From a virus (taxonomy: Duplodnaviria; Heunggongvirae; Uroviricota; Caudoviricetes): a DNA stretch of 6,274 nt. The stretch lies in IMG/VR virus record IMGVR_UViG_2617270976_000005, positions 1-6,274 of that record. The stretch is one strand, 5' to 3'. The notes under the pieces are model-generated. The model was not told the origin of the DNA and did not search any database. It worked only from the letters and a program-made list of their open reading frames with translations. Made by a program: the position numbers and the translations under genes. Numbering within the stretch: the stretch's first letter is position 1; each line of letters begins with the position of its first letter. Shown piece by piece: positions 1,645-2,307 of the stretch.

Positions 1645-1818
1645 ATGAAAATCGAAGAATTACGTGAAATTTTTAGTGAAGATGGCCTCTATGCTGTGCG
1701 CGTTGAGAATGGGGGTATTACCTACACAGCGTTAATTCCTGATGATCATGTAGTGTTATCTGTTGAGGCATTCATTGAATACTTGGAAAGACTCGGTTTC
1801 AAGGTAGTTCGGGAATAA
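1645..1818 (+). CDS. Hypothetical small acidic protein, 57 aa (MKIEELREIFSEDGLYAVRVENGG...)
   Basis: ATG 1645 with AAGGA 8 nt upstream; protein-like composition; my own translation. Not in the ORF track (under cutoff). Confidence 0.4.
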   Translation: MKIEELREIFSEDGLYAVRVENGGITYTALIPDDHVVLSVEAFIEYLERLGFKVVRE

Positions 1819-1826
1819 GTTATAAT
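1797..1826 (+). promoter_or_regulatory. Candidate promoter with consensus -10 TATAAT (1821-1826) and weak -35 (TTTCAA/TTCAAG)
   Basis: Perfect TATAAT hexamer directly after the stop of the 57-aa ORF; the -35 is poor. Confidence 0.3.
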
Positions 1827-1877
1827 ACGTGAGCCAGCCTGAACAACTGGCAACCTGCAGCGCCATTGGAGATGACA

Positions 1878-2138
1878 ATGGCGCATAATTTCAAATTTCG
1901 CAATTCTGATTCTGCCTTTGCCAGCAGGCACGGGTGGCGTTCTCACGCATTCAAATATGACTGGTATCAGCACGATCCCTGTACTGAAGAACAGGCCGAA
2001 TGGCTGATTCATAACTACCGCAGACGTGGATATGAGTTTAGGAAAGCCCTCAGTGGCGCTTATTGTTCGCCAGCAGCGACTGAAATTAAGCCTGTCCGGA
2101 CGGCTGGCAATAAAAATTATTGCAGAGCCACCGGATAA
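1878..2138 (+). CDS. Uncertain ORF, 86 aa; 3' part overlaps rusA out of frame
   Basis: ATG 1878 with GGAG 6 nt upstream; the first ~50 codons look protein-like, the remainder is an alternate-frame read of the RusA-like region. May mark a mosaic junction. Confidence 0.25.
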   Translation: MAHNFKFRNSDSAFASRHGWRSHAFKYDWYQHDPCTEEQAEWLIHNYRRRGYEFRKALSGAYCSPAATEIKPVRTAGNKNYCRATG

Positions 2139-2307
2139 GCGTCGTCGTGACCTGGACAATATTCTGAAAGCACCACTGGATGCGCTGACGCACGCGGGGT
2201 TGTTAATGGACGATGAGCAGTTTGATGAAATCAATATTGTACGTGGCCAGCCAGTATCTGGTGGACGGCTGGAGATAAGAATTACAGAGGTGGGTGTGCA
2301 TGAATAA
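2026..2307 (+). CDS. rusA: RusA-family Holliday-junction resolvase homolog, apparently N-terminally truncated (93 aa versus about 120 aa)
   Basis: ...AEPPDKRRRDLDNILKAPLDALTHAGLLMDDEQ...GGRLEIRITEVG aligns with the catalytic acidic region of E. coli RusA ([10 protein letters not shown]...DALTKAG...DD...GGRLELTITEMG) as I recall it. In-frame TGA at 2005-2007 blocks upstream extension, and the GTG/ATG start has no clear RBS. Confidence 0.6.
   Translation: MDMSLGKPSVALIVRQQRLKLSLSGRLAIKIIAEPPDKRRRDLDNILKAPLDALTHAGLLMDDEQFDEINIVRGQPVSGGRLEIRITEVGVHE

Follow-up and report, generated by a model that had tools for sequence, protein, structure and literature searches.

Deletions in the nin region of phage lambda (e.g. 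nin5, which spans ~2.8 kb) and the decay of cryptic lambdoid prophages are both well established. Nin deletions represent the spontaneous loss of dispensable genes located between the replication/early region and the antiterminator gene Q. The locus described here resembles them in this respect: a lambdoid prophage, which also carries an insertion sequence (IS), has lost genes from the region preceding Q, although the deleted segment is shorter than that of nin5 (1.27 kb versus ~2.8 kb).

One of the genes affected is rusA. A described counterpart is the intact RusA of the Escherichia coli K-12 prophage DLP12 (PDB 1Q8R, 2H8C and 2H8E; Pfam family PF05866). In its monomer two helices flank a mixed sheet of four strands; residues 13-16 form a helical turn that contacts DNA, ahead of a flexible loop (residues 15-28). 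Residues D70, D72, K76 and D90/D91 are catalytic, and these, together with N73 and an Arg-rich loop, have been named as catalytic or DNA-binding residues (PMC1636454). In contrast, the rusA of the locus studied here has lost its first 38 codons along with its start codon and ribosome-binding site and, being a fragment of a gene, cannot be filed as an intact member of the family.

We analysed a stretch of 6,274 nt (hereafter the window), i.e. positions 1 to 6,274 of the IMG/VR record IMGVR_UViG_2617270976_000005. We interpret the truncated rusA as the trace of a single internal deletion of 1,272 bp, located in the "nin-like" region that extends from hokD to Q in a lambdoid prophage, and assign to this reading a probability of about 0.93.

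Genetic context of the locus

The window represents a typical segment of a lambdoid prophage. It contains a hok/gef toxin ORF (1213-1425; Pfam E-value 2.9e-23), known as hokD in relatives, whose 51-aa core lies within a mechanically called ORF of 70 aa, and 3' of which a strong intrinsic-terminator-like hairpin is found (1494-1511). A small ORF of 57 aa (1645-1818, plus strand; phrog_340, of unknown function) is placed between hokD and the truncated gene described below, inside a block that is 100% identical to the intact relative L009.

The rusA remnant is located directly 5' of Q and overlaps it, as is typical in lambdoid phages. Q itself (2300-2989, plus strand; 229 aa; Pfam Phage_antiter_Q, E-value 4.8e-82) is intact and overlaps the rusA stop by 8 nt. 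It retains its own GAGG motif at 2287-2290, and a strong terminator-like hairpin lies 3' of it (3051-3076). Expression of Q from this ribosome-binding site probably continues, unaffected by the deletion. Further downstream the window encodes an N6/N4 DNA methylase of 349 aa (3551-4600) and, just 3' of it, two tRNAs: one with the anticodon CAT (4650-4725), assigned to Met by ARAGORN (the tRNA at the corresponding position of the RefSeq relative L003 is annotated as tRNA-Ile), and a tRNA-Arg (TCT; 4826-4902).

The last part of the window is occupied by IS1 (5897-6274), which starts with its left inverted repeat GGTGATGCTGCCAACTTACTG at 5897, carries an insA ORF (5952-6227) and runs off the window end. 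This element, inserted 3.6 kb downstream, interrupts sequence that is uninterrupted in two relatives: in L009, where the equivalent of window 5896/5897 (L009 7596/7597) is free of IS1, and in L022. Having suffered both a 1.27-kb deletion and the insertion of IS1, the prophage is visibly decaying.

A 1,272-bp internal deletion revealed by an intact relative

The preliminary description had recommended comparison with related prophages as a way of locating the breakpoint. The relative L009 (GCA_017174395.1, contig DADKVW010000005.1) is collinear with the window on both sides of the junction. Window 1-2052 corresponds to L009 430-2481 with 100% identity, and window 2051-5896 to L009 3752-7596 with 99.84% identity. 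When L009 430-2481 is joined to L009 from 3754 onward, window 1-3213 is reproduced with zero mismatches, and over the whole of window 2053-5896 the two sequences differ by 5 substitutions and one 1-nt indel. The segment absent from the window (L009 2482-3753) measures 1,272 bp. The junction therefore lies at 2051-2052, as indicated by both the megablast matches (see below) and the L009 alignments, and not near the TGA codon at 2005-2007; this stop codon is indeed present, in frame with the GTG at 2026 (offset 21 nt).

Three genes are affected by the loss. Missing from the window are the last 98 nt (codons 59-90, i.e. 32 codons) of a 273-nt gene encoding 90 aa (L009 2307-2579), an entire DUF968/HNH gene encoding 352 aa (L009 2581-3639; phrog_96 'HNH endonuclease', E-value 6.5e-167), and the first 114 nt, i.e. 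exactly 38 codons, of a rusA gene encoding 122 aa (L009 3640-4008). The disappearance of the whole DUF968 gene becomes visible through the comparison with L009 and not from the letters of the window alone.

The arrangement found in L009 recurs elsewhere. Its hokD, small ORFs, Q, methylase and tRNAs follow the same order as in the window, and the region is also intact throughout L004-L013. In L001, L002 and L003 the order is hokD, small ORF(s), a ~90-aa hypothetical gene, DUF968 (~350 aa), RusA (122-126 aa) and Q. Proteins identical to the 229-aa Q of the window were found in 10 places, in all of which Pfam domains reveal a DUF968 gene (277-352 aa) and then a 120-122-aa RusA directly before Q. 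In relatives of the left flank, existing annotation shows two small hypothetical genes; in relatives of the right flank it shows a 'RusA family crossover junction endodeoxyribonuclease' with 'antitermination protein Q' after it.

The two parental ends share only the dinucleotide CA, present in L009 at 2480-2481 and 3752-3753, of which one copy is kept at window 2051-2052, so that the exact crossover point is ambiguous by 2 nt. The left parental end reads ...GGAAAGCCCTCA before the breakpoint and CCCTCGATTATCGTC after it, the right one ...TATCGCCGGGCA before and GTGGCGCTTATTGTTC after, and the window across the junction reads ...GGAAAGCCCTCAGTGGCGCTTATTGTTC. If the left gene is represented by its L002/L003 alleles, the shared sequence grows to CAG, followed by a loose similarity (11/17). 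A short identity at both breakpoints with a single copy retained is the pattern left by microhomology deletion, 2 nt being weak evidence as to mechanism. In the ancestral order, the 90-aa phrog_1212 gene was followed by the 352-aa DUF968/HNH endonuclease gene, rusA (122 aa) and Q. Illegitimate recombination or replication slippage between sites sharing CA alone, an overlap close to that expected by chance, would have deleted the DUF968 gene completely, together with codons 59-90 of the gene to its left and rusA codons 1-38. The upstream gene would thereby have been converted into an 86-aa chimera and rusA into a fragment, leaving Q intact.

A separate observation concerns L009 3745-3759, which can form a terminator-like hairpin (CGCCG-GGCAG-TGGCG plus a T-rich tail), in the loop of which the right breakpoint is located. 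This position may be relevant to slippage or may be a coincidence. We also considered the removal of a terminator, as in nin5. This weak 5-bp hairpin is the sole candidate, and since the deleted 1,272 bp contain no convincing intrinsic terminator, they offer no support for a phenotype of the N-independence type.

Another difference between the two sequences is one extra C in the window at 3214 (L009 4915). The window ORF at this place (3067-3399) encodes 110 aa, its counterparts in L004, L005, L006, L010 and L012 encode 106 aa, and the L009 call is 59 aa long. The frameshift seems to be on the L009 side, since it is the window ORF that resembles the relatives in length.

Lambdoid nin-type regions are highly mosaic, and many E. 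coli genomes pair the flanks of this junction with different alleles. For example, the left flank is identical in L001, where the antiterminator differs and rusA is 91% identical; in L002 it is the right flank that is identical, next to a left gene of 77% identity. Against this background it had been proposed that recombination produced the 5' truncation at a mosaic junction, i.e. that exchange between different phages put foreign sequence at the 5' end of rusA. The junction itself is real. However, a mosaic would unite flanks of different lineages that have no collinear relative, whereas in L009 the left flank (100% identity) and the right flank (99.84% identity) are found with their order and orientation preserved, separated by precisely the 1,272 bp that the window lacks, and the window has gained nothing foreign. 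Exchange between phages is thus very unlikely to have created this junction, which is far better explained by an internal deletion.

Distribution and reality of the junction

The region surrounding the junction (window 1600-2400) was compared by megablast with 5,426 complete E. coli genomes and 50,697 phage records. Matches were obtained in 3,280 of the 5,426 genomes. In E. coli the left half of the query ends at query position 453-454 and the right half starts at 452-454; expressed in window coordinates, all matches, from 3,293 records of E. coli and 18 of phages, stop at 2051-2055 from either side. No match spanning the junction was found in the complete E. coli genomes, where no place covers at least 80% of the query, nor in the phage records, in which the same left/right split is observed.

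Pattern searches gave a similar result. A 36-nt junction pattern had no match in the GTDB species-representative genomes or in the metagenome collection, and a 20-nt degenerate pattern had none in the latter. In the GTDB genomes the 20-nt pattern matched twice (Paraglaciecola and an alphaproteobacterial MAG), in sequences with no other similarity to the window. We take these two as chance occurrences, our own estimate being ~2 expected in 596 Gb. The 20-mer matches in IMG/VR were of another nature: IMGVR_UViG_2617270976_000002 (L021) and IMGVR_UViG_2617270976_000001 (L022) are both 100% identical to window 1-4646, junction included. L021 and L022 belong to one genome (taxon 2617270976), from which the window may itself derive, and this limits the independence of these observations of the junction. 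L022 departs from the window at 4647, where the tRNA region starts, and it has no IS1 at the window's site.

The absence of the junction from complete E. coli genomes, phage records and metagenomes, together with the chance-like character of the GTDB 20-mers, is what an assembly or sequencing artefact (a chimeric read or a collapsed assembly) would produce. On the other hand, the breakpoints share just 2 nt, offering no repeat that could mislead an assembler, and the identical junction occurs in L021 and L022, which differ from each other or from the window after 4646. Because the junction is present in contigs that differ downstream, we regard an artefact as highly improbable. The occurrence of the same deletion allele in at least two downstream contexts argues for a real, rare and recent event, its recency being indicated by the flanks, which are still 100% and 99.84% identical to the intact relative.

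The site of divergence between the contigs merits separate mention. At 4647, 3 bases before the first tRNA gene, the alignment of the window with L022 changes from 100% identity to a patchwork of substitutions and indels (4647-4867 in both), and L021 ends at this same boundary. Position 4647 marks a boundary of mosaic or repeat type at the tRNA module.

The rusA remnant

The mechanically called ORF of 93 aa begins with GTG (2026-2307, plus strand), and its product contains VALIVRQQR... Codons 1-9 (2026-2052) are DNA of the upstream gene read in another frame, and codons 10-93 are RusA. The true rusA remnant (2053-2307, plus strand) runs from codon 39 to codon 122 of the parent gene (122 aa) and includes its stop codon; it is identical to L009 3754-4008 and encodes a sequence beginning VALIVRQQRLKLSLSGRLAIKIIAEPPDKRRRDLDNILKAPLDALTHAGLLMDDEQ. 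ORF residue 10, from which the product is RusA-derived, corresponds to residue 37 of the 120-aa homologs and to residue 39 of the 122-aa parent. The preliminary description, in which the product aligned only with residues ~28-120 of RusA, was right about the missing N-terminus, although the truncation is slightly deeper, RusA sequence starting only at residue 37.

By profile, the remnant belongs to the RusA family (PF05866/NF007305). The 93-aa ORF matches Pfam RusA PF05866 with an E-value of 4.3e-10 and 40.7 bits, above the curated threshold of 22.8, the match being confined to positions 32-124 of the 124-position model; in NCBIfam PRK09786 it matches positions 37-118 of 120. The remnant scores 63.5 bits with an NCBIfam 'exception' model, whose cutoff of 200 is likewise out of reach of the intact L009 protein (87.9 bits). 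In addition, residues 19-90 of ORF 2026-2307 are matched by the PHROG family phrog_1532.

For alignment we used E. coli K-12 RusA, whose sequence was confirmed against PDB 1Q8R, and the remnant is homologous to its residues ~37-118. In this alignment, in which the window reads PPDKRRRDLDNILKAPLDALTHAGLLMDDEQ over the stretch containing the catalytic residues and the Arg-rich loop (65-69), the remnant keeps the loop (PDKRRRD) and the equivalents of D70, D72, N73, K76 and D90/D91 without substitutions. What has been lost can be read from an AlphaFold2 model of the full-length 120-aa homolog P0002 (pLDDT 74, pTM 0.70). The model comprises strand beta1 (2-7), the turn 13-16, a hairpin (17-26), helix alpha1 (28-43), the remaining strands (53-60, 93-100 and 109-116) and helix alpha2 (69-83). 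Since the remnant starts at residue 37 in this numbering, it lacks beta1 (one of the four core strands), the PPxxN motif, the turn that touches DNA and the flexible loop, and its alpha1 is shortened by 9 of 16 residues. With 38 codons gone, the complete ~120-aa RusA fold is not encoded.

Signals for translation are missing as well. The absence of a ribosome-binding site, noticed earlier, was verified by direct reading of the sequence, in which no AGGAG, GGAG or GAGG (i.e. no Shine-Dalgarno motif) occurs within 20 nt 5' of GTG 2026 or ATG 2032. In L009 the native rusA ATG (3640) abuts the DUF968 stop, which suggests that rusA is translationally coupled to DUF968; both are deleted in the window. 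The remnant thus has neither a start with a ribosome-binding site nor coupling to an upstream gene. Given the lack of these signals and the lost elements of the fold, we infer that it is most likely a non-functional pseudogene fragment, either untranslated or unable to fold. Unsubstituted catalytic residues are expected after a recent event, and the status of pseudogene is thus not yet 'confirmed' by decay.

Are short RusA proteins natural?

The earlier interpretation would have been undermined by widespread RusA homologs of ~93 aa sharing the N-terminus of the window ORF. No such class emerged. Among 372 homologs at E ≤ 1e-5 the well-sampled ones are 119-126 aa long. None of the matches listed covers the whole 93-aa query (91% for the closest, 95% at most), none of the short homologs examined shares the window's N-terminus, and exact-product look-ups returned no record of the 93-aa or 91-aa RusA ORF products. 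Most of the short entries with a source name are labelled 'partial' and reside on short contigs.

Several candidates for natural forms were rejected individually. P0004 and P0006 have no initiator Met and bear the NCBI label partial, as does P0014, which aligns like them. P0118 (87 aa), without the window's N-terminus, is a shortened copy in an otherwise intact context of DUF968, RusA and Q, and P0068 (86 aa) comes from a metagenome contig in which the adjoining DUF968 and Q calls are fragmented. In P0001 (126 aa) the N-terminus is aberrant, and the ORF and the end of DUF968 overlap. This last allele (L014 305-685) is 99% identical to the remnant of the window, and its unrelated N-terminus reads MESINDRTHRICF...; its rusA 5' end looks frameshifted, and this copy of the gene has decayed independently.

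The family phrog_1532, an 80-position profile of unknown function, matches just the C-terminal two-thirds of RusA. It probably collects shortened or mis-started rusA calls and could be re-labelled. Short RusA-like ORFs do get called in phage genomes, as this profile demonstrates, with no sign that they form a functional class.

It is nevertheless conceivable that the deletion created a functional short protein, either a RusA without its N-terminus, translated from GTG 2026 or ATG 2032, or the chimera of 86 aa described below, acting e.g. as a dominant-negative partner. The intact catalytic and Arg-rich residues and the short ORFs represented by phrog_1532 are compatible with this idea. Partners could be supplied by other copies of RusA, since the number of matching places per matching E. 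coli genome has a median of 2 and reaches 11. Against it stand the missing ribosome-binding site, the loss of one of the four core strands and of more than half of alpha1 (our model; PMC1636454), the absence of the exact products from the records, and the great rarity and recency of the allele. The short homologs examined, moreover, are contig-edge partials, a protein with a frameshifted start, a shortened copy, or part of a locus with fragmented calls. A functional product is therefore extremely improbable. Just as doubtful is the related proposal that a new product, i.e. the chimera, which does have a ribosome-binding site, or an internally initiated C-terminal fragment of RusA, affects recombination, e.g. 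as a poisoned dimer partner. If this were true, the deletion allele would be retained in a multi-rusA host for the effect of the new product and not by neutral decay.

The upstream gene and the chimeric reading frame

Upstream of the junction lies the 5' part (1878-2052, plus strand; 175 of 273 nt, i.e. 58 codons plus 1 nt) of the conserved 90-aa phrog_1212 phage gene of unknown function, 100% identical to L009 2307-2481 and L001 3279-3453. Its truncation is reflected in the profile matches: the window gene covers positions 1-36 of 66 (E-value 1.2e-17), the intact L009 protein all of them (1-66; E-value 4.7e-37). The gene retains its native start, ATG 1878, and its ribosome-binding site, GGAG at 1868-1871. 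ATG 1878 corresponds to the RefSeq-annotated start of WP_001403449.1 in a relative (L001 3279 aligned to window 1878). Hence the ORF in another frame overlapping the rusA 5' end, which extends from TTG 1866 or ATG 1878 to 2138, does possess the good ribosome-binding site ascribed to it, but belongs to another gene.

The 1,272-bp deletion keeps the different frames of the two genes, so the upstream gene now reads into rusA out of frame. The resulting ORF (1878-2138, plus strand) encodes a chimera of 86 aa, in which, as seen by comparison with the intact L009 protein, 58 native residues ending in ...RKAL are followed by 28 residues from rusA, SGAYCSPAATEIKPVRTAGNKNYCRATG, and a stop codon; the tail of the chimera reads SGAYCSPAATEIK. 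An exact-product look-up detected no gene on record for this protein.

The string NYRRRG, to which attention had been drawn as a faint N.YR..RG resemblance at 2013-2030, is present, and is native sequence of the upstream 90-aa protein (...EWLIHNYRRRGYEFRKAL... in intact L009). Its resemblance to RusA is coincidental. That a small indel shifted the rusA 5' end to the frame of ORF 1866-2138, making NYRRRG a displaced motif, draws on a superficial likeness to the N-terminal motif of RusA (NTYWRRRG in close homologs), but is refuted, since window 1878-2052 is, with 100% identity, the 5' part of a phrog_1212 gene lying upstream of DUF968 and ~1.1 kb from rusA in intact relatives, and Pfam detects no RusA signal in this ORF, which contains the phrog_1212 5' end in place of the missing N-terminus.

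Implications

Pseudogenes formed by deletion are already known from cryptic prophages, and the case described here represents ordinary prophage decay, opening no new biological question. Its value lies mainly in annotation: the 93-aa ORF should be recorded as a rusA pseudogene fragment, ORF 1878-2138 as the shortened chimeric remnant of the upstream gene, and the locus as one that has lost its DUF968/HNH endonuclease gene. With a 1.27-kb deletion and an IS1 insertion set against a near-identical intact relative, it provides a clean, datable example of the decay of a prophage.
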